Below, piece by piece: positions 60 through 21,881 of a DNA stretch of 63,240 nucleotides; within the stretch, counting starts at the first letter, position 1, and each line of letters starts with the position of its first letter. The stretch is from a virus (taxonomy: Duplodnaviria; Caudoviricetes): positions 1 through 63,240 of the IMG/VR virus record IMGVR_UViG_3300044580_000304. The stretch is one strand, 5' to 3'. The notes under the pieces were generated by a model, which saw only the letters and a program-made list of their open reading frames with translations, did not search any database and was not told where the DNA came from. Both the position numbers and the translations under genes were made by a program.

Positions 60-539
60 CTATTCGTTTTTATTATCATAATATCCACTATACTCTTTCA
101 CTCGTTTAATGTACCAGTTACTTCCACCATACCTCCTTACTCCATTAACACCTTGCCTATGAGCGGCAATGGCAAGATCTGAGCTTCCAAGCCTTTTTAG
201 GTTGTCTACGTATAAATATCCCGCAATTATAGCCGACTCTAAAGGATCAAAGGGATCGTATTCACCGTACTTTTTAGCACGTTCGGCATGATAGCTCTCA
301 TTCAATTGCATCCTTCCCTTACTTATTCCATCATCACCAATAGCGGTATCATCTTCTCCCGATTCTGTAATAGCTATTCCACGCAGGATATGAGATGGAG
401 CACCAGTAATTTCCTCCGCGATTTCATAAATTGTTTTATCCTTCTTTGGCAACGCGACTTTTTCATCTTGTGGTCTTGACGATGACAGCATCAAAACAGA
501 GAAGAGACAGCACGAAATGATAATAGTGATCACTTTCAT
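60..539 (-). CDS. Lytic transglycosylase (SLT-like) with N-terminal membrane anchor/signal
   Basis: Motifs IAITESG, GRMQL, AGYL and AIAAHRQG match the SLT layout; hydrophobic N-terminus. Confidence 0.75.
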   Translation of the reverse strand: MKVITIIISCCLFSVLMLSSSRPQDEKVALPKKDKTIYEIAEEITGAPSHILRGIAITESGEDDTAIGDDGISKGRMQLNESYHAERAKKYGEYDPFDPLESAIIAGYLYVDNLKRLGSSDLAIAAHRQGVNGVRRYGGSNWYIKRVKEYSGYYDNKNE

Positions 540-540
540 C

Positions 541-603
541 TGGGGCTAGGTGGAATTGGACCACCGCAGGAAAGGAGGTAGGACCTGCCCACATGGTAGC
601 CCC
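541..603 (-). ncRNA. tRNA-like RNA (acceptor stem plus T-arm, no D-arm) with an anti-SD loop
   Basis: GGGGCTA/TAGCCCC-A acceptor stem; GGTGG-TCCAATT-CCACC T-arm; GCAGG-TCCTACCTCCTTT-CCTGC stem-loop. Confidence 0.55.
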
Positions 604-670: not shown

Positions 671-851
671 CGCTTCGTAACTCTTGGTTTTCTTATTTAC
701 CATGGCTCGCTCAAGCATGTTGGTTTTCTCCCCTATGTTGACTCGCTCTCACATTATGGTTTTCTCATTTTTTTTGGCTCGCTCGCGTACACTGGTTTTC
801 TCGCCGAAGGTGGCTCGCTCTTTCCAAGTGGTTTTCTCACTAAACATGGCT
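671..851 (-). ncRNA. TIGR-like dual-repeat array, 5 x 36 nt
   Basis: Plus-strand TGGTTTTCT at 685, 721, 757, 793, 829 and TGGCT(CGCT)-type repeat at 703, 739, 775, 811, 847; exact 36-nt period with unique spacers; minus-strand unit AGCCA-N9-AGAAAACCA-N9-AGCG. Confidence 0.75.
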
Positions 852-9135: not shown

Positions 9136-9191
9136 GATTGTATAATAAGGCAATATTGCCACATTGTCAATACATAAATTGCAATTTTGCC
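9117..9191. promoter_or_regulatory. Lysis/lysogeny switch: three operators plus leftward promoter
   Basis: GCAAT(T/A)TTGCC at 9117, 9150, 9181; minus-strand TTGACA(9170-9165)-17-TATTAT(9147-9142). Confidence 0.8.
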
Positions 9192-9216
9192 ACTTTTTAT
9201 TTCCGATAATCTATAT

Positions 9217-10071
9217 ATGAATGATTTTTGGAAGCGTGTTAAAGAGAAAATTAAAGAATCAAATACTACAATGGAGTGGATTGCAAACCAGATTGGAGTA
9301 AGAGCTGATTCTTTTAGAAGATGGTCACAAAGAGAGACTATTCCAGATGCAGAAAAAGCCTACAATATAGCCAAATCGCTAAATACATCTGTCGAATATC
9401 TTATTACTGGAGAGGAGCCACGCTATATATCGAAAGAAGATTATTCATTTCTAATTAGGGCTAAGAAATGGAAAAACATAATAGATGATTTAGAGATGCT
9501 AAGTCCACAAATCTCTAATAGTTTCTATGAAAGTATTCATCTATTAGCAAAAGAAGCTTATGGATTTTCTAATGCCAAAAAAATTTTCAAGAATCCCAAC
9601 GAGCTTGCGATCGAGATCCGCAATCAGCGTGGAGAGTCAGAGGAGATTGATTATTTCGATGTTGTGCCTGTCCCCGTCTTTTCCCAAAAAATTGCAGCAG
9701 GCAATGGGCAACAGGCACTCGCAGACAGCTCAATTATCGGTAAAATTCCTTTCCTTAAACGTATGCTCCGAGGTATCCATCCCTCTCGCGCAAGAGCAGT
9801 AGAGGTGCGCGGAGACTCGATGACAGGCATCCAGCTTTTTGATGGAGATATTGTCGTCTTTATACCAGGCGAGATACACGGAGATGGAATCTATGTCATT
9901 AGAATTATGGACGATCTCTATGTGAAACGTGTCGAGTTTGATCCTATCAACAGAAAGATAAGAATTATGTCTGAGAACCCTCGGTATCCCGACCGCATCG
10001 AATCGGCTGACGGTCAGACCGTAGAGGTAGTAGGCAAAGTGTACGGTTGGATACATGCGCATCCATATTGA
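9217..10071 (+). CDS. CI-like repressor (HTH plus S24 peptidase)
   Basis: N-terminal HTH; VRGDSM (catalytic Ser) and YVKR (Lys); likely ATG 9217. Confidence 0.92.
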   Translation: MNDFWKRVKEKIKESNTTMEWIANQIGVRADSFRRWSQRETIPDAEKAYNIAKSLNTSVEYLITGEEPRYISKEDYSFLIRAKKWKNIIDDLEMLSPQISNSFYESIHLLAKEAYGFSNAKKIFKNPNELAIEIRNQRGESEEIDYFDVVPVPVFSQKIAAGNGQQALADSSIIGKIPFLKRMLRGIHPSRARAVEVRGDSMTGIQLFDGDIVVFIPGEIHGDGIYVIRIMDDLYVKRVEFDPINRKIRIMSENPRYPDRIESADGQTVEVVGKVYGWIHAHPY

Positions 10072-10901: not shown

Positions 10902-11598
10902 TCGGAATATTTTCTAATACATCATGTCTATCGAAAAGCTTATAGACAAAATAGGTTGGGTAATACTTCATCGTTATCGGATCATAGCAAGGATCGAGGT
11001 CGACATAGTGTATGCCATTCGCGCTCCTATTTATTCTTGTCCTAAGCTCTATGGCTTCTTTCCCTGGCATTTTTATGTATAGGGGATTCTGTATCAATAT
11101 CTTATGTGACCCGGTATATCCACCGGCATATTTACCCTGAATTTGAAGCATCATATTTCCACGCTGAAATTCCACTATGTAAAGATAGTAGCGATTTGCC
11201 ATGGCAGCAGAGAGATTCGTATCCCACTCAGCGCTCTTTGCAAAGATCCATTGATTGAGATAGTTCATATATCTTTCGACCGCTCCAAGAGAGAGAATAT
11301 CACCATAACAGATAGCGCTGGTATCTGCTCCCTCGATATCGAAGATTACCATGGAAATTATTCTATCTCCCGATATTTCGATTGAAAGATAGGTTGGAAA
11401 TCTTACAGGCTCATTGGCAATGATATTGGCAAAAATGTTTGCATCTACAATATGCTTAATACTAGAGGGTAGGTAATTGTCGAACTCAATATAAGTAGAA
11501 TCATAAGGTTGAGCATTTGAATTTTCTTTCTCATTTGTTGACGCGCAACTAGCCAATAAAATTGGCAGTATAAAAACGGCAAGAACAAACCTTTTCAT
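10894..11598 (-). CDS. Lipoprotein
   Basis: MKRFVLAVFILPILLAS-C lipobox. Confidence 0.8.
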   Translation of the reverse strand: MKRFVLAVFILPILLASCASTNEKENSNAQPYDSTYIEFDNYLPSSIKHIVDANIFANIIANEPVRFPTYLSIEISGDRIISMVIFDIEGADTSAICYGDILSLGAVERYMNYLNQWIFAKSAEWDTNLSAAMANRYYLYIVEFQRGNMMLQIQGKYAGGYTGSHKILIQNPLYIKMPGKEAIELRTRINRSANGIHYVDLDPCYDPITMKYYPTYFVYKLFDRHDVLENIPIE

Positions 11599-12821
11599 TT
11601 TTCTGCGTCCTTTTTGATTATTGGCTCGAATACTCTGTCGATAGTATCAACAAGACCTTTCATGTCGGTGACAGAGAAGTGAGTATAGCCTCTCTGAACC
11701 TTCGTCAATTTATTGCTATCCTCGCTCCATCCAAGATATTCTCTTATAATAATAGGACTTGCTCCTTGCATAAGCAAGAGCGTGTTAAGGGTGTGCCGTA
11801 AACTGTGCGGGGTTCGCTTATGGCCATCTGAATCATAAAGGGGAAGCTTTGACTTTTTCATGGCGCTATCGAAGTTCTTTTTCCACCATTGAGCGCTATG
11901 GCGCCTGCCAGTTTCTGGGTCACAGAAGATCAGGTCATCATCGTCGAGCATTGTGTTTCTGGTAGCCTTGTGCTCGCTGATAATGCACCAAGCCGACCTA
12001 CTTATAGGGACCGTTCTTGGCTTGTTCCCCTTTGGCTCTCCCTTTTCTGCGATATCTTTCCAGTTATTGACGATAGCCAGTTCCTGTTCGCTTACGCATC
12101 CCCAAGGGAGGGCAAGAACTTCGCCACATCTCATTCCGGTAACGGCCACCAGGCGAAAACAATTCCACGCCTCTGTGTTATTCCAATTCTCCTGTCGTAA
12201 AAGAATTCTAAGCTCATCTATCGAAAAAGCGCCTCTTGGATTGTCATAATTCGAGCCAAGTCTCACAATCCCGACGCATGGGTTATAGGGGATATCCCGA
12301 TTTATTACAGCTTCCCCAAAAACTGTTTTCACTGCATTCATGATTTTGTCGATAGTCCCCGACGAAAGCGGGCGAATGGGAACGGGTGGAATTTCATTCC
12401 TATTCTTGTCCTTCTTCGGTTGCGACATGACCATTTTCTTTTGCAACCTGGCACGGAATGCCGTAATGTCGCGTGTCTTTATTTCATATATAGTCATGTC
12501 TGCTATGGGATCCGCGAGGACATGGTTTTTAATATATGACCTTATTATCCTGGCTGATTTTTTTGAAATGCTCTTTTGACCAATTCTCTGAATATGTGGA
12601 CAGCGTTCATAATCATAGAATGGTTCAATATACTGTCGAAGAGTATTTCGCCCTTCTTTTGCCAGCTCTTCCTTTCGAAGTGCTTCCTTTAAGGCAGCCT
12701 TAGCGGCTGCTTCGTTTCTGGTCCCTGTTGATACATAATTCTTCATCCCAGGCAATCGATAGCGGAAAATTCCAGATCCTGGCCTTCGTTTCAGTGAGTA
12801 TGGTAATTGATTGCGTCCCAT
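11595..12821 (-). CDS. int: Tyrosine integrase
   Basis: TGMRCGE, K, HSLRH, LGWS...Y catalytic set. Confidence 0.95.
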   Translation of the reverse strand: MGRNQLPYSLKRRPGSGIFRYRLPGMKNYVSTGTRNEAAAKAALKEALRKEELAKEGRNTLRQYIEPFYDYERCPHIQRIGQKSISKKSARIIRSYIKNHVLADPIADMTIYEIKTRDITAFRARLQKKMVMSQPKKDKNRNEIPPVPIRPLSSGTIDKIMNAVKTVFGEAVINRDIPYNPCVGIVRLGSNYDNPRGAFSIDELRILLRQENWNNTEAWNCFRLVAVTGMRCGEVLALPWGCVSEQELAIVNNWKDIAEKGEPKGNKPRTVPISRSAWCIISEHKATRNTMLDDDDLIFCDPETGRRHSAQWWKKNFDSAMKKSKLPLYDSDGHKRTPHSLRHTLNTLLLMQGASPIIIREYLGWSEDSNKLTKVQRGYTHFSVTDMKGLVDTIDRVFEPIIKKDAEK

Positions 12822-15136: not shown

Positions 15137-15287
15137 ATAGATAAATAGATGTTTTGAGCAAGAAATCCATAAATTTTGAAGAAAATTACTATACAAAAAA
15201 CGGAAAACTACTATACAAAAAAGCCCCCGTGAGGAGGCGCACGAGGGCACCGGAGACTGCCGGTACAGCTTGCGGGAAAGGACGATA

Positions 15288-15353
15288 GCCGAGCCAAAGA
15301 TTCGAACTTTGCATAATGCGCTTACAGGGCGCTTATGGCACCAAGCGCTCGGC
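15288..15353 (-). ncRNA. Degenerate tRNA / tRNA-like element
   Basis: GCCGAGC/GCTCGGC acceptor stem; CAAAG-TTCGAAT-CTTTG T-arm; only 66 nt with a non-canonical D/anticodon region. Confidence 0.55.
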
Positions 15354-15376: not shown

Positions 15377-15604
15377 TCAAGCAGGCAGGTGGTTCTCGGC
15401 GCAAAGCTCAAGGAAATAATCGCGGATCTTTTCCACCGCCTCATCGGCCGATTTGAAATTATGCCCATACTTTTCCCATGCTCGAAGCTGCTGCTTCATG
15501 TCGTCAATGATAGAGACCATCTGGCGGGCATGTGCATAGAGATCAATATCTTCCGGTTCCCGTGCGTAGAAGGCTGCGAGAATTGGCAGGTTTTCTTCAT
15601 CCAT
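15377..15604 (-). CDS. Hypothetical protein
   Basis: ORF with AGGAGG RBS. Confidence 0.6.
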   Translation of the reverse strand: MDEENLPILAAFYAREPEDIDLYAHARQMVSIIDDMKQQLRAWEKYGHNFKSADEAVEKIRDYFLELCAENHLPA

Positions 15605-18930: not shown

Positions 18931-19025
18931 GCAAAAGGGCTGGTTATCCCTGTTACGGAATAATCAGCCCTTGTCTCCACTTGGCGATCAATAGGAATTT
19001 TACCATAGCCACACCCCGCCGTCAA
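18931..19025 (-). promoter_or_regulatory. Lysis-operon promoter, 19-nt box and terminator hairpin
   Basis: TTGACG(19025-19020)-17-TAAAAT(19002-18997); box 18985-18967; long stem followed by U-tract. Confidence 0.7.
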
Positions 19026-20058
19026 CATTCGATGCTTGAAACACAATGGAGTTTAAGATTCCAATAGTTGTTGTGCGGCACCGGCAATGCTTCGTGTATC
19101 CTAAAAACGAGAGAATGCTTTGTTTTGCTTTTTCCAGTATTCTAGGATTTGATCGATATAGTTCGGCATACCTTTTCAGCCTCCTGCGGGTTCTTTGTAT
19201 GGTTGCCTTTTTAGGCTTGATGTGAGTGGGCCAAATACGATAGCCACAAAAATCAATACCTTGTTTCCAGAGGAATATTCTTGACTTTGGATTCAATTCC
19301 AAATCAAGATACGCATTGAGATATCCTTCTATCAAAATCCACAATCGTCTTAAATGCTGCTTTGATGGATGCAGAATGATCATATCATCCATATACCGTA
19401 CATAATACCTTGCACCACAAATATCTTTTATAAAATGATCCAGTGCATTCAGATAAATATTGGCCGATAATTGACTTGTGAGTGCCCCGATCGGCAAGCC
19501 GCGGCCATCGGTCTCAAAGCTATCGATAACGACCCTATAAAGTGCGTTGACCATTTTATCAGAAATAGCTCTCGCAAATTCCTTCTTGAGAATTGCGTGG
19601 TTAATGGAAGGGAAAAATCTATGTACATCCAATTTAAGTACGTAAAATTCTCCATAATTTCGATGCGCAATCCGCGCAAAATGTTGTATTCTTGCGACGG
19701 CTGCATGCGTGCCCAATCCTTTTCTGCATGCAAAAGAATCCGAAATGAATTTCTTTTCAAAGATAGGCTCTATCACCTGCACGAGTGCATGATGCACCAC
19801 CCTATCCCGAAAAGCAGGCGCTGATATAAGACGCCTTTTCGGATCACTCACCCAGAATTGTCTGTAAGGAAGAGGTGTATACATATTCCATATTAACTCG
19901 TTTTGGAGTTCGATAAGATTCTCTTCGAGGTTCTCTTTGAATCTCAGCGCTTCGATTCTATATCTTTTCCCTCGCTTGGCTTTTACGTAGGCATTGTAGA
20001 GATTCTCATAATCGACAACGGACGTAAAAAGGTTATTATATGCTTTCATCTTGTCCAT
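19000..20058 (-). CDS. DGR reverse transcriptase
   Basis: PKRRLI.AP.FRDRVVH, GLPIGALTSQ, YVRYMDD, IDFCGY; no intron maturase/endonuclease tail; TR and avd upstream. Confidence 0.97.
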   Translation of the reverse strand: MDKMKAYNNLFTSVVDYENLYNAYVKAKRGKRYRIEALRFKENLEENLIELQNELIWNMYTPLPYRQFWVSDPKRRLISAPAFRDRVVHHALVQVIEPIFEKKFISDSFACRKGLGTHAAVARIQHFARIAHRNYGEFYVLKLDVHRFFPSINHAILKKEFARAISDKMVNALYRVVIDSFETDGRGLPIGALTSQLSANIYLNALDHFIKDICGARYYVRYMDDMIILHPSKQHLRRLWILIEGYLNAYLDLELNPKSRIFLWKQGIDFCGYRIWPTHIKPKKATIQRTRRRLKRYAELYRSNPRILEKAKQSILSFLGYTKHCRCRTTTIGILNSIVFQASNVDGGVWLW

Positions 20059-20207
20059 TATAAAGTAGCGCGAACCACAGTCGGGGATCGCCCCTACCAG
20101 CCGCCCGCGCCTTTTAATGTTTTCCTATAAAAGGAAGGAACAGGACTCCTTTTTCTCTATGCTCTGCCCATGTGCCCGTAAGCGCATGGTTTCTGACATT
20201 GAGAGAG

Positions 20208-20322
20208 AGCAGGGCGAAACCCGATGTTGTTGTTCGAGTTGACGCGGCGATTATTCAGATTCAAGTACGCCAATCCAGCATTCGCGCCATTGTTCCAGTT
20301 GCCGCCCCGAAGGGGAACCCGC
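20208..20322 (-). repeat. DGR template repeat (TR), 115 bp
   Basis: Ungapped match to VR 20760-20874; rich in AAC/AAT codons. Confidence 0.95.
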
Positions 20323-20342
20323 CACATTTTTCAGCCCTGTCC

Positions 20343-20687
20343 CTAAACACCAGGCGAATGTAACCATCCACCCAGCATCTTTCCTATTTCCACCATCTGC
20401 CCTGAGAGGACCCCGTATTTTTTCATGTCCATAAATTTAAGAAGCATCCCCATTCGCACGAGAATCTTAAGCCGCGAAAGCTCCATATCAGCGGCCTCGA
20501 TCATGCGCCGACGCTCTTGCGTGGCGCGTATCATGTTCGCACGCGTGATATAGGTGCCAATGTTCCAGAGCGCATTCGTTGTATCCGCTACTAAAGTATG
20601 CCGCTCAGATTTGGGATACTGTTTCATTGCAATATATAAATAGAGTGCCATATCCTCCCACTTCTGAACAACCTTCATTGGCTCCAC
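20343..20687 (-). CDS. avd: DGR accessory variability determinant
   Basis: YPKSERHTL...EIGKMLGGW four-helix bundle lying between VR and TR. Confidence 0.93.
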   Translation of the reverse strand: MEPMKVVQKWEDMALYLYIAMKQYPKSERHTLVADTTNALWNIGTYITRANMIRATQERRRMIEAADMELSRLKILVRMGMLLKFMDMKKYGVLSGQMVEIGKMLGGWLHSPGV

Positions 20688-20747
20688 AGCTTTACTCCTT
20701 AAGTTTAGGCATGAAAACCATCAGAATCCAGATTCTCAGAAAACAGA

Positions 20748-21881
20748 TTACAACACAAAAGCAGGGCGAAACCCGATGCTGGTGGCCGAGATGACGCGGC
20801 GATTATCCAGATTCATGTACGCCAATCCAGCATTCGCGCCAGAGTTCCAGAGGCCGCCCCGAAGGGGAACCCGCTCTCCATAGTTGCGCACTGAAACATA
20901 ACCCTTTGCTTCATAGCCCTGCGTAGCGAATACCAAGGAGCCGTCCTTACTCACCTTCGGCGCGATCATGAGCGCAGCGAGCTTCTGCCTTAGTGCAAGC
21001 TCCATTGAGTCATAGGTCGCCACATACGTCATGCTTCTCCAACCATTCTCTCCGCTAATTGTGGCATAGTCAAAATCTCCCGTGTCGCCGCCACCAGCAG
21101 GAGTAGGTGTTTCAGTATATTTTGTAGGAGTAACATTCGATAATACTGGATCACCACTATCTGCGGCGCCGTTTCTGTCTCCAGGGCCTACGGTCGCATC
21201 AAAATAAGCCTCTCTGGCTGGCCACGACGATTCAGCTAGGTTGAAGTTGTTATCGTCGGGGAAATACATCCTTCCATCGATGATCTTAAAGCCATCGTTC
21301 CATTCGGAAATATTCCCGACCAGATCGGCAATCCCTGCATAGGTATTGTCGTGCCGCCACGAATTTGGGCCCGATCCCGTCAAGGTGCTTGGAGTACCAG
21401 TTGAATCCCCAGGAGTCCCACCATCCACACGCACACCAGTTTCATAGGTTAATGCATGCGAGCGGCCATAGTTTGTATTCCCTCTTGGCTGGAAGCCGTT
21501 CTTAAGGCACCACAGTGCAATTGCCGCCCATTCCCACGCGGTCATCATGTGCCATCCAGCGCCCTTGCTTGTGCAGGCCGATCTTGCAGCATCAAAAGTA
21601 ATGCCTGTCTTCGGGTCTTGTCCTGGTAGCGAGTATGCGCGGCCATCGATAACAACTGCCTGATAAGCTCCAATCCAGATCTCTGGTTTTGTTACACCAC
21701 CCACAATAAATGCGGGGTGCGGCCCAGTGCCGAGTTCTGCGCTGATATCTTCCAAATTGAACTTTGGAATCCTCACCATGTAACTGGGATTGCCCAGGTC
21801 ATCGTACATGATCTTCACTTTACCGCCTGATGCTGCAAAGATCGCAGCACTCATGGCATCCTTCGTAAAAGTTGCTGGCAT
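20748..21881 (-). CDS. DGR target protein, Mtd-like C-type-lectin/FGE-fold receptor-binding protein
   Basis: WHMMTAWEW, GIADLVGNISEW, RGGxW...IGFRPAF C-terminus containing the VR. Confidence 0.92.
   Translation of the reverse strand: MPATFTKDAMSAAIFAASGGKVKIMYDDLGNPSYMVRIPKFNLEDISAELGTGPHPAFIVGGVTKPEIWIGAYQAVVIDGRAYSLPGQDPKTGITFDAARSACTSKGAGWHMMTAWEWAAIALWCLKNGFQPRGNTNYGRSHALTYETGVRVDGGTPGDSTGTPSTLTGSGPNSWRHDNTYAGIADLVGNISEWNDGFKIIDGRMYFPDDNNFNLAESSWPAREAYFDATVGPGDRNGAADSGDPVLSNVTPTKYTETPTPAGGGDTGDFDYATISGENGWRSMTYVATYDSMELALRQKLAALMIAPKVSKDGSLVFATQGYEAKGYVSVRNYGERVPLRGGLWNSGANAGLAYMNLDNRRVISATSIGFRPAFVL
20760..20874 (-). repeat. DGR variable repeat (VR)
   Basis: 11 mismatches to TR, 10 of them at TR adenines. 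Confidence 0.95.

Follow-up and report, generated by a model that had tools for sequence, protein, structure and literature searches.

The locus and its tRNA-shaped element

The DNA analysed here is IMG/VR virus record IMGVR_UViG_3300044580_000304, a whole record of 63,240 bp with a direct repeat of 55 bp at its termini, and is referred to below as the window. It is the genome of a temperate phage, encoding a tyrosine integrase (11595-12821) and a CI-like repressor (9187-10071), and in the ORF list of the window nearly all long open reading frames (ORFs) lie on the minus strand. We focus on the junction between a non-coding repeat array and the gene of a lytic transglycosylase with an SLT domain, where the minus strand carries a tRNA-shaped element, named E1 here. 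The features of this junction are the following, the parts of E1 being given in plus-strand coordinates.

60..539, minus strand: SLT-domain lytic transglycosylase gene, 159 aa (Pfam SLT, E = 3.6e-08)
540..540, minus strand: G, one base separating the discriminator from the start codon
541..603, minus strand: E1, a D-armless tRNA mimic of 63 nt (RNAfold)
597-603 with 542-548: 5' and 3' strands of the E1 acceptor (7 bp), followed by discriminator A at 541
589-596: linker of 8 nt replacing the D arm
584-588 with 566-570: middle stem (5 bp), closing a loop of 13 nt at 571-583
571..579, minus strand: ACCUCCUUU, a word resembling the anti-Shine-Dalgarno sequence, in the 13-nt loop (plus strand, AAAGGAGGT)
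561-565 with 549-553: T stem (5 bp), closing a T loop of 7 nt at 554-560

Read as minus-strand RNA, E1 runs GGGGCUA, the 8-nt linker, GCAGG-UCCUACCUCCUUU-CCUGC, GGUGG-UCCAAUU-CCACC, UAGCCCC and a final A. With RNAfold, the three-helix fold is both the minimum free energy (MFE) and the centroid structure (-28.9 kcal/mol), with a z of -2.89 and one of 200 shuffles equally good; all 17 pairs are Watson-Crick, and the fold is retained in a 201-nt context. The border signals comprise U(-1), the G1-C72 pair and A73, without a CCA after A73. The T arm is identical, over its 17 nt, to that of three phage tRNA-Ile genes called by ARAGORN in loci L003, L009 and L022 (L numbers designate loci retrieved from other contigs).

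To appreciate how readily such a fold arises, genomes of 63 kb with the composition of the window were simulated. A descriptor with all-Watson-Crick helices (7-bp acceptor, adjoining 5-bp/7-nt T arm and a third 5-bp hairpin) matched in 7 of 300 of them, an optimistic estimate of chance given that the descriptor was devised after E1 had been seen. E1 is a genuine mimic of a tRNA and lies on the coding strand.

The start codon of the SLT gene (ATG, 539-537) lies one base past the 3' end of E1, and it cannot be placed further upstream since an in-frame TAG occurs 6 nt before it. The start has no Shine-Dalgarno (SD) sequence: its pairing with the anti-SD amounts to +1.3 kcal/mol, compared with a median of -6.4 kcal/mol, and is the third weakest among 69 crude gene calls. 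Most genes of the phage have SDs of the GGAGG type, a type deduced from the phage's own genes. The N terminus of the SLT product resembles a signal peptide. The sole viral relative of this protein found in viral contigs, located in L002 and 75% identical, has its start at the corresponding position and is preceded by an AAGGAG SD, an ordinary upstream gene and no tRNA mimic. Coupling to an upstream ORF was considered as well and judged unlikely, the candidate 22-codon frame (ATG at 614 to TAG at 546-548) having no SD and lying inside the structure.

A preliminary description of this DNA, made from the letters alone, had proposed a 7-bp acceptor with discriminator A, a 5-bp/7-nt T arm and no D arm, all of which were reproduced by RNAfold. 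The GCAGG/CCUGC stem said to replace the anticodon arm was found too, with the anti-SD-like word in its loop, which measures 13 nt. In addition, the placing of the SLT ATG one base beyond the 3' end and the absence of an SD were both borne out.

Class tests and homologue searches

A canonical tRNA can be rejected. With members of Rfam clan CL00001, E1 shares the 7-bp acceptor, the discriminator and the 5-bp/7-nt T arm, and it differs from them in the absence of the D arm and of the variable region; its 13-nt loop starts with UC, lacks U33 and offers no readable anticodon. E1 passed neither the tRNA finders nor the Rfam thresholds. ARAGORN called no gene in the whole window and left E1 uncalled at the default and 80% thresholds, as well as in the intron, mitochondrial and transfer-messenger RNA (tmRNA) modes, the latter result also setting aside a tmRNA. 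At a 50% threshold, it produced a poor forced fold over E1, a 68-nt 'tRNA-Arg'. In an Rfam search of positions 400-1000, the best match of E1 was tRNA-Sec (16.5 bits, E = 2, for a gathering score of 47), and a scan of the whole window at E <= 10 gave no tRNA-clan match.

The C4 antisense repressor RNA of phages P1 and P7 is processed by RNase P and pairs through its loops with a downstream gene's ribosome-binding region. E1 resembles it as a phage small RNA with a tRNA-like end, which would be cut from an operon transcript and whose loop could mask ribosome-binding sites; it differs in that its loop presents a generic anti-SD word, for which no specific target stood out. No match to the C4 family was obtained in 400-1000, where tRNA-Sec and a snoRNA are the only Rfam entries at E <= 10, and the E1 loop pairs with generic GGAGG-type sites. 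The Cuckoo/alpha-r14 small RNAs (RF02344) carry CCUCCUCCC loops, and E1 likewise exposes a C/U-rich, anti-SD-like loop; this class was rejected, with no match at E1 and a different architecture. With regard to a phage attachment site (attP) or tRNA fragment, 24-mers taken from the 3' halves of E1 and of a second mimic, E2, described below, are absent from species-representative genomes, a collection from which the host may be missing, and the integrase lies 11 kb away from E1, which leaves such an origin unsupported.

Searches for homologues of E1 and its gene gave the following picture. The SLT protein had no relative among metagenome contigs. Exact searches found no copy of the loop-arm 23-mer in viral contigs, of the 3'-half 24-mer in the genome collection, or of the 21-mer spanning the loop/T junction in metagenomes. 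The 17-mer of the T arm matched 20 loci, namely the three true tRNA-Ile genes, L015 (outside any tRNA called by ARAGORN) and a remainder that looks coding. A two-gap pattern built on E1 and L074 (an analogous mimic presented below) retrieved L074 only, and model R1, used with default filters, found no homologue in 63 loci bearing the repeat array.

As a side observation, the reverse complement of the T-arm 17-mer occurs in a conserved family of loci (L005, L006, L010-L014, L016 and L020). In L006, L010 and L020, the corresponding hairpin, together with an acceptor-like helix, is flush with the ATG of a 67-aa ORF, probably by coincidence within a coding region.

A second mimic in the window

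The window contains another D-armless tRNA-like fold, followed by a terminator.

15287..15353, minus strand: E2, a second D-armless tRNA-like fold of 67 nt (MFE -26.6 kcal/mol, z = -2.31)
15217..15248, minus strand: intrinsic terminator 3' of E2, with a 9-bp stem and a U run, the 8-nt loop (CGCCUCCU) including CCUCC

E2 is located after the stop of a 75-aa ORF (15377-15604). Its acceptor has 7 bp, its T arm is canonical (UUCGAAU) and its discriminator is U; a 9-nt linker replaces the D arm, the middle arm is long and ends in a 7-nt loop (CCUGUAA), and there is no variable loop. The acceptor-plus-T-arm layout thus has two matches in the window, versus 0.43 expected from the simulated genomes. 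A scan combining the T-loop consensus, the T stem and a 7-bp acceptor gave 62 matches over the window and the retrieved loci, versus 0 to 5 in ten shuffles; most of these are true tRNAs, and within the window the scan returned E1, E2 and a probably spurious AT-rich match inside a large ORF.

The stretch after E2 has a weak ar14 ('Cuckoo') match (17.9 bits versus a gathering score of 58.8), and the E2 stretch could represent a small RNA gene or a degenerate tRNA. The 24-mer of its 3' half was found neither in genomes nor in viral contigs, and the neighbouring 237-aa protein has no viral relative.

Analogous mimics before start codons of other phage contigs

The structural scan described above, which had no start-codon requirement, also brought up the mimic L074:1863-1935. 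This element has an acceptor of 6-7 bp, a 9-nt linker, a T arm, discriminator A and no D arm, and its middle arm is a stem of 6 bp topped by a pyrimidine-rich loop of 18 nt, in which ACCUUCC occurs. The discriminator A is followed by a single U, and then by the ATG, the earliest possible one, of an SD-less gene for an ABC-transporter permease of 272 aa; the next permease gene in L074 has a strong SD. A pattern made of the T loop, 10 nt, A, N and ATGAAA retrieved 16 loci, including L097 and L100. The L097 mimic, in a region identical in L100, is D-armless, spans 59 nt and is unlike that of L074 in sequence; A, G and the ATG of an SD-less permease gene follow it. The two permeases are orthologous and 56% identical, and at both sites, L074:1863-1939 and L097:5023-5085, the mimic sits downstream of a solute-binding-protein gene and before the first permease gene.

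Comparison of the helices of L074 and L097 revealed that 11 of 18 pairs are changed on both sides and none is broken (acceptor, 4 of 6; T stem, 2 of 6; middle stem, 5 of 6). This comparison concerns one pair of sequences aligned by position from their folds, a MAFFT alignment of E1, L097 and L074 having misaligned the 5' halves. E1, E2, L074 and L097 share a common grammar, with a 12-bp acceptor-plus-T stack, a short linker standing for the D arm and a discriminator, and in all four the middle hairpin abuts the T stem with 0-2 nt between them. When a covariance model built on E1 only was run unfiltered over the window, L074 and L097 (86,711 bases), its top non-self matches were L097 (16.9 bits, E = 0.057) and L074 (12.4 bits, E = 0.95), a ranking that is suggestive but not significant.

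These features bear on the idea that E1 has no present function, be it a tRNA gene in decay, an attP/tRNA fragment or a fold arisen by chance. The phage is temperate, the T arm of E1 is that of phage tRNA-Ile, E1 is an orphan, and its layout does occur in 7 of the 300 simulated genomes, all of which is compatible with a relic or an accident. A decaying gene would hardly keep 17 Watson-Crick pairs out of 17; furthermore, the integrase is 11 kb off, no species-representative genome matches the 3' half of E1 or of E2, two mimics occur in one 63-kb genome, and E1 is flush with an SD-less start just as the L074 and L097 mimics are. We consider such an origin rather improbable.

Other tRNA-like folds were noticed in the retrieved loci. 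In L086, L088 and L090, non-canonical acceptor-plus-T-arm folds lie 1 nt before ATGAAA, at the head of ORFs of 43, 226 and 44 aa, respectively; two of these ORFs are hydrophobic, and some of the folds may be chance pattern matches. The array-bearing contig L028 has at 2193-2272 a tRNA-like fold with a UUCGAUU T loop, discriminator A and no D arm, whose long middle arm contains CCUUUCCC and ends in a UUUCC hairpin loop. It is located 27 nt before an SD-led ATG; ARAGORN is silent on it, and Rfam gives tRNA-Sec at 18.3 bits. Three more tRNA-like folds are uncalled by ARAGORN: L003:1059-1158 (100 nt, with a long inserted hairpin), L019:2332-2401 (70 nt) and L068:5458-5562 (105 nt), the last resembling the tRNA of a neighbouring contig with an insertion.

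E1 as a predicted punctuation signal

RNase P and RNase Z read the 12-bp acceptor-plus-T stack of tRNAs. The part of E1 that these enzymes would read is of genuine tRNA type, because its T arm is identical to that of the tRNA-Ile genes. From the fold, strand and position of E1, the lack of an SD, the second mimic and the layout kept in other phages through compensatory changes, we infer the following cleavage steps and a leaderless mode of translation. The proposed minus-strand transcript would contain, in this order, a LexA-like gene, the repeat array, E1 and the SLT gene. The RNase P of the host would cut before G603 (603/604), and its RNase Z, or an equivalent 3' tRNA-processing activity, after A541 (540/541). 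These cuts would end the upstream, array-bearing RNA and free a tRNA-shaped RNA of about 63 nt. The remaining SLT message would keep a 1-nt leader (G-AUG) and, being almost leaderless, might do without an SD for its translation. We give about even chances to this prediction, namely, that E1 is a punctuation signal similar to the t-elements and is cut by RNase P and RNase Z. Such processing is the simplest account since an SD-less ATG is fixed one base after the mimic in three gene contexts.

Leaderless bacterial mRNAs are usually viewed as the result of transcription starting at the AUG. The nearly leaderless SLT mRNA, which had also been put forward in the preliminary description, is supported by analogy with the independent contigs L074 and L097, where mimic, A, one nucleotide and an SD-less ATG follow each other in the same way.

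E1 might instead act in cis without being cut, as a spacer that shields the upstream RNA from 3' exonucleases and/or throttles SLT translation, its single-stranded pyrimidine loop serving as an S1/standby site for initiation independent of an SD. Its intercistronic position, ahead of a secreted enzyme probably needed in small amounts, would suit such a role, as would the location of the L074 and L097 mimics between solute-binding-protein and permease genes, junctions at which differential expression is common, and the large unpaired loops of E1 and L074. Nevertheless, a plain hairpin would do for this purpose, and the tRNA-type T arm, the 12-bp stack, the discriminator A and the 1-nt spacing fixed in independent cases are left unexplained. 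Moreover, initiation at an SD-less start should be very poor with a stable 7-bp helix 2 nt away. We regard an uncut spacer as unlikely.

With regard to the punctuation signal, several points weigh against it. E1 has no sequence homologue in the viral, metagenome or genome collections, and its own structure is consequently without covariation support, the main weakness of the functional claims. The link from E1 to L074 and L097 is structural, with model scores that fall short of significance at genome scale, and in L097 the T loop and the A-N-ATGAAA arrangement were demanded by the search pattern and hence built in. A relaxed acceptor-plus-T helix flush with a start codon is found at the level of chance, with 11 real cases versus 31-41 shuffled ones, counts that are not strictly comparable, as the real set, unlike the shuffles, was restricted to cases with an ORF of 60 aa or more. 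E2 is not flush with any start codon. The presence of RNase Z and the capacity for leaderless translation would depend on the host. Finally, a single base before the AUG approximately halves leaderless initiation in Caulobacter, and an extra base at this place is stated in the same report to inhibit it in E. coli (PMC8459731).

The anti-Shine-Dalgarno loop

In the preliminary description, E1 was proposed to yield a stable RNA that could sequester GGAGG ribosome-binding sites. The word ACCUCCUUU is indeed exposed, with a mean probability of being unpaired of 0.93. On minus-strand RNA of the window, CCUCC occurs 24 times, of which five are intergenic, and two of these five sit in hairpin loops associated with the two mimics (the E1 loop and the terminator loop after E2). 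The middle loop differs from one mimic to another, with 13 nt in E1, 18 pyrimidine-rich nt in L074, AACAUUC in L097 and CCUGUAA in E2, and therefore the anti-SD word does not define the class. When the 13-nt loop of E1 was compared with the phage transcriptome, generic purine tracts and SDs were obtained, with no outstanding target. With a loop that is not kept in the analogues and no specific target, the proposed sequestration is unsupported.

A trans-acting role of the excised, stable RNA, whose ACCUCCUUU loop would pair with GGAGG sites and damp SD-led translation, is compatible with processing and might be added to it. The unpaired state of the 9-nt word, the GGAGG type of the phage SDs, the two intergenic CCUCC loops located beside the mimics and the pyrimidine-rich L074 loop, with its ACCUUCC, all speak in its favour. 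They have to be balanced against the variation of the loop in L097 and E2, and against the best duplexes, which involve a mixture of coding purine tracts and SDs, none of them specific. Furthermore, CCUCC in a pyrimidine-rich loop is not rare by chance (an estimate rather than a computed value), and titration of SDs would require a high abundance of the RNA. On balance, a role in trans seems to us a weak candidate. If the loop were active too, processing would be tied to a global control of SD-led translation.

A combination of the two ideas can be imagined, in which phages use miniature D-armless tRNA mimics as movable marks by which host tRNA enzymes make leaderless messages of internal operon genes, and the freed anti-SD loop of E1 masks GGAGG sites, together forming a two-mode switch of initiation. 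If true, the SLT message would become independent of an SD by the very cut that frees an inhibitor of SD-led translation; we see this as a long shot.

The word on the opposite strand has also been considered, namely, the possibility that AAAGGAGGT is the true ribosome-binding site of a micro-ORF and the minus-strand fold incidental, a point that the preliminary description had raised against its own proposal. It is a perfect SD word on the plus strand, and AAGGAGGT at 572-579 is the sole plus-strand copy out of four in the window. The next ATG (592) comes 13 nt further on and begins a frame of only 15 codons; none of the plus-strand ORFs of at least 30 aa starts there. No promoter-like site was found on the plus strand of 1-1600, the neighbourhood is coded on the minus strand, and the plus strand folds less well (z = -1.63). 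This case was judged weak, and we give it next to no credit.

The upstream repeat array

685..838, minus strand: non-coding repeat array with nine units by loose criteria, and degenerate ones as far as about 668-886

In this phage, E1 stands at the junction between the array and the next gene. The array alternates the 10-mers RAGAAAACCA and RAGCGAGYCA with 8 variable nt between them, giving an 18-nt unit and a 36-nt period. An exact-pattern scan of IMG/VR found 63 loci with the array (L023-L085), and a looser detector identified 93 arrays spread over 61 of 64 sources. Their median is 11 units, the longest having 51, and a locus holds up to four of them. They have no consistently open reading frame. 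A same-strand ORF follows within 400 nt in 82 of 87 cases and a terminator-like hairpin in 5 of 87, which argues that the arrays are normally read through into the next gene.

The array matches no Rfam family, and among the matches listed in a literature search, its motif strings appeared in no relevant paper. A VIPR array was ruled out, the VIPR units being GGY/NN. The array belongs to a widespread, seemingly undescribed class of phage repeats, and E1 marks the 3' border of this unexplained element.

A family of proteins of about 289 aa occurs in 47 of the 63 array loci (for instance at L025:319-1179, minus strand), and several arrays begin right after its stop codon. It is related to phrog_4285, 'transposase' (E = 7e-37), and weakly to Pfam Transposase_20/HhH (E = 0.004). 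The window, a complete genome, has no homologue of this family (best hmmsearch E = 0.012), and its array is therefore an orphan. A ParB-like ORF clusters in 10 array loci, and in L026 and L028, the two examples inspected, it lies directly after the array.

Further features of the genome

611..665, minus strand: two small hairpins between the array and E1, with a weak terminator-like site at 646-665 and a second hairpin at 611-626

The large terminase of the phage has at most 35% identity to that of any GenBank phage. Near-identical DNA is present in a sludge metagenome run. From three DNA runs, two contigs of 151 nt cover 272-579, with one difference at position 480, and two others cover 986-1279; they bear on neither conservation nor expression. 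The window also contains, on the minus strand (19000-21881), a putative diversity-generating retroelement, whose reverse transcriptase, template and variable-repeat labels are assigned from the layout. The presumed reverse-transcriptase ORF (19000-20058) is adjacent to an RT-14 RNA (20066-20209; Rfam, 66.7 bits). The template repeat (20208-20322) and the variable repeat (20760-20874) are 90% identical, a 114-aa ORF lies between them, and the variable repeat lies at the 3' end of a 377-aa ORF (20748-21881).

Comparison with known systems

Among the papers listed in full-text literature searches, none describes punctuation by tRNA mimics creating leaderless genes in phages or bacteria; the known cases of tRNA-type punctuation come from mitochondria, with engineered ones in haloarchaea. 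In plant mitochondria, t-elements direct cuts by RNase Z and/or RNase P at mRNA ends (PMC1920247). In Haloferax, tRNA-like elements flanking a CRISPR RNA (crRNA) are cut by RNase P and tRNase Z, yielding exact RNA ends (PMC4946936).

E1 has the properties by which t-elements are recognised, i.e., a non-decoding tRNA-like fold with an acceptor-plus-T stack, situated at an RNA boundary and on the transcribed strand, and the cuts predicted for it would likewise define the ends of neighbouring RNAs. It differs from them in belonging to a temperate bacterial phage, in having neither D arm nor variable loop, and in lying 1 nt from a start codon.

The nuclear, eukaryotic mascRNA is a tRNA-like small RNA located at the 3' end of MALAT1. 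The likeness lies in a mimic of about 60 nt: once RNase P has excised it, the long non-coding RNA upstream acquires its 3' end, and in our proposal this upstream RNA would be the array transcript. mascRNA has no homology to E1, and no start codon follows it.

In animal mitochondria, punctuation of transcripts by tRNAs, reportedly described by Montoya, Ojala and Attardi in 1981, is said to yield leaderless mRNAs. In both systems, a tRNA-shaped unit abuts an SD-less start codon, and its excision would create a translatable 5' end. Mitochondria make use of true tRNAs and dedicated translation, whereas here a non-decoding mimic would operate in a phage that otherwise uses SDs.

E1 belongs to no Rfam family and is functionally closest to the t-elements and to mitochondrial tRNA punctuation. 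If the punctuation proposed for E1 is real, phages would gain a compact and portable means of freeing a gene from SD dependence and of setting the relative expression of genes in one transcript, for which the L074/L097 pair provides a testable comparative example.

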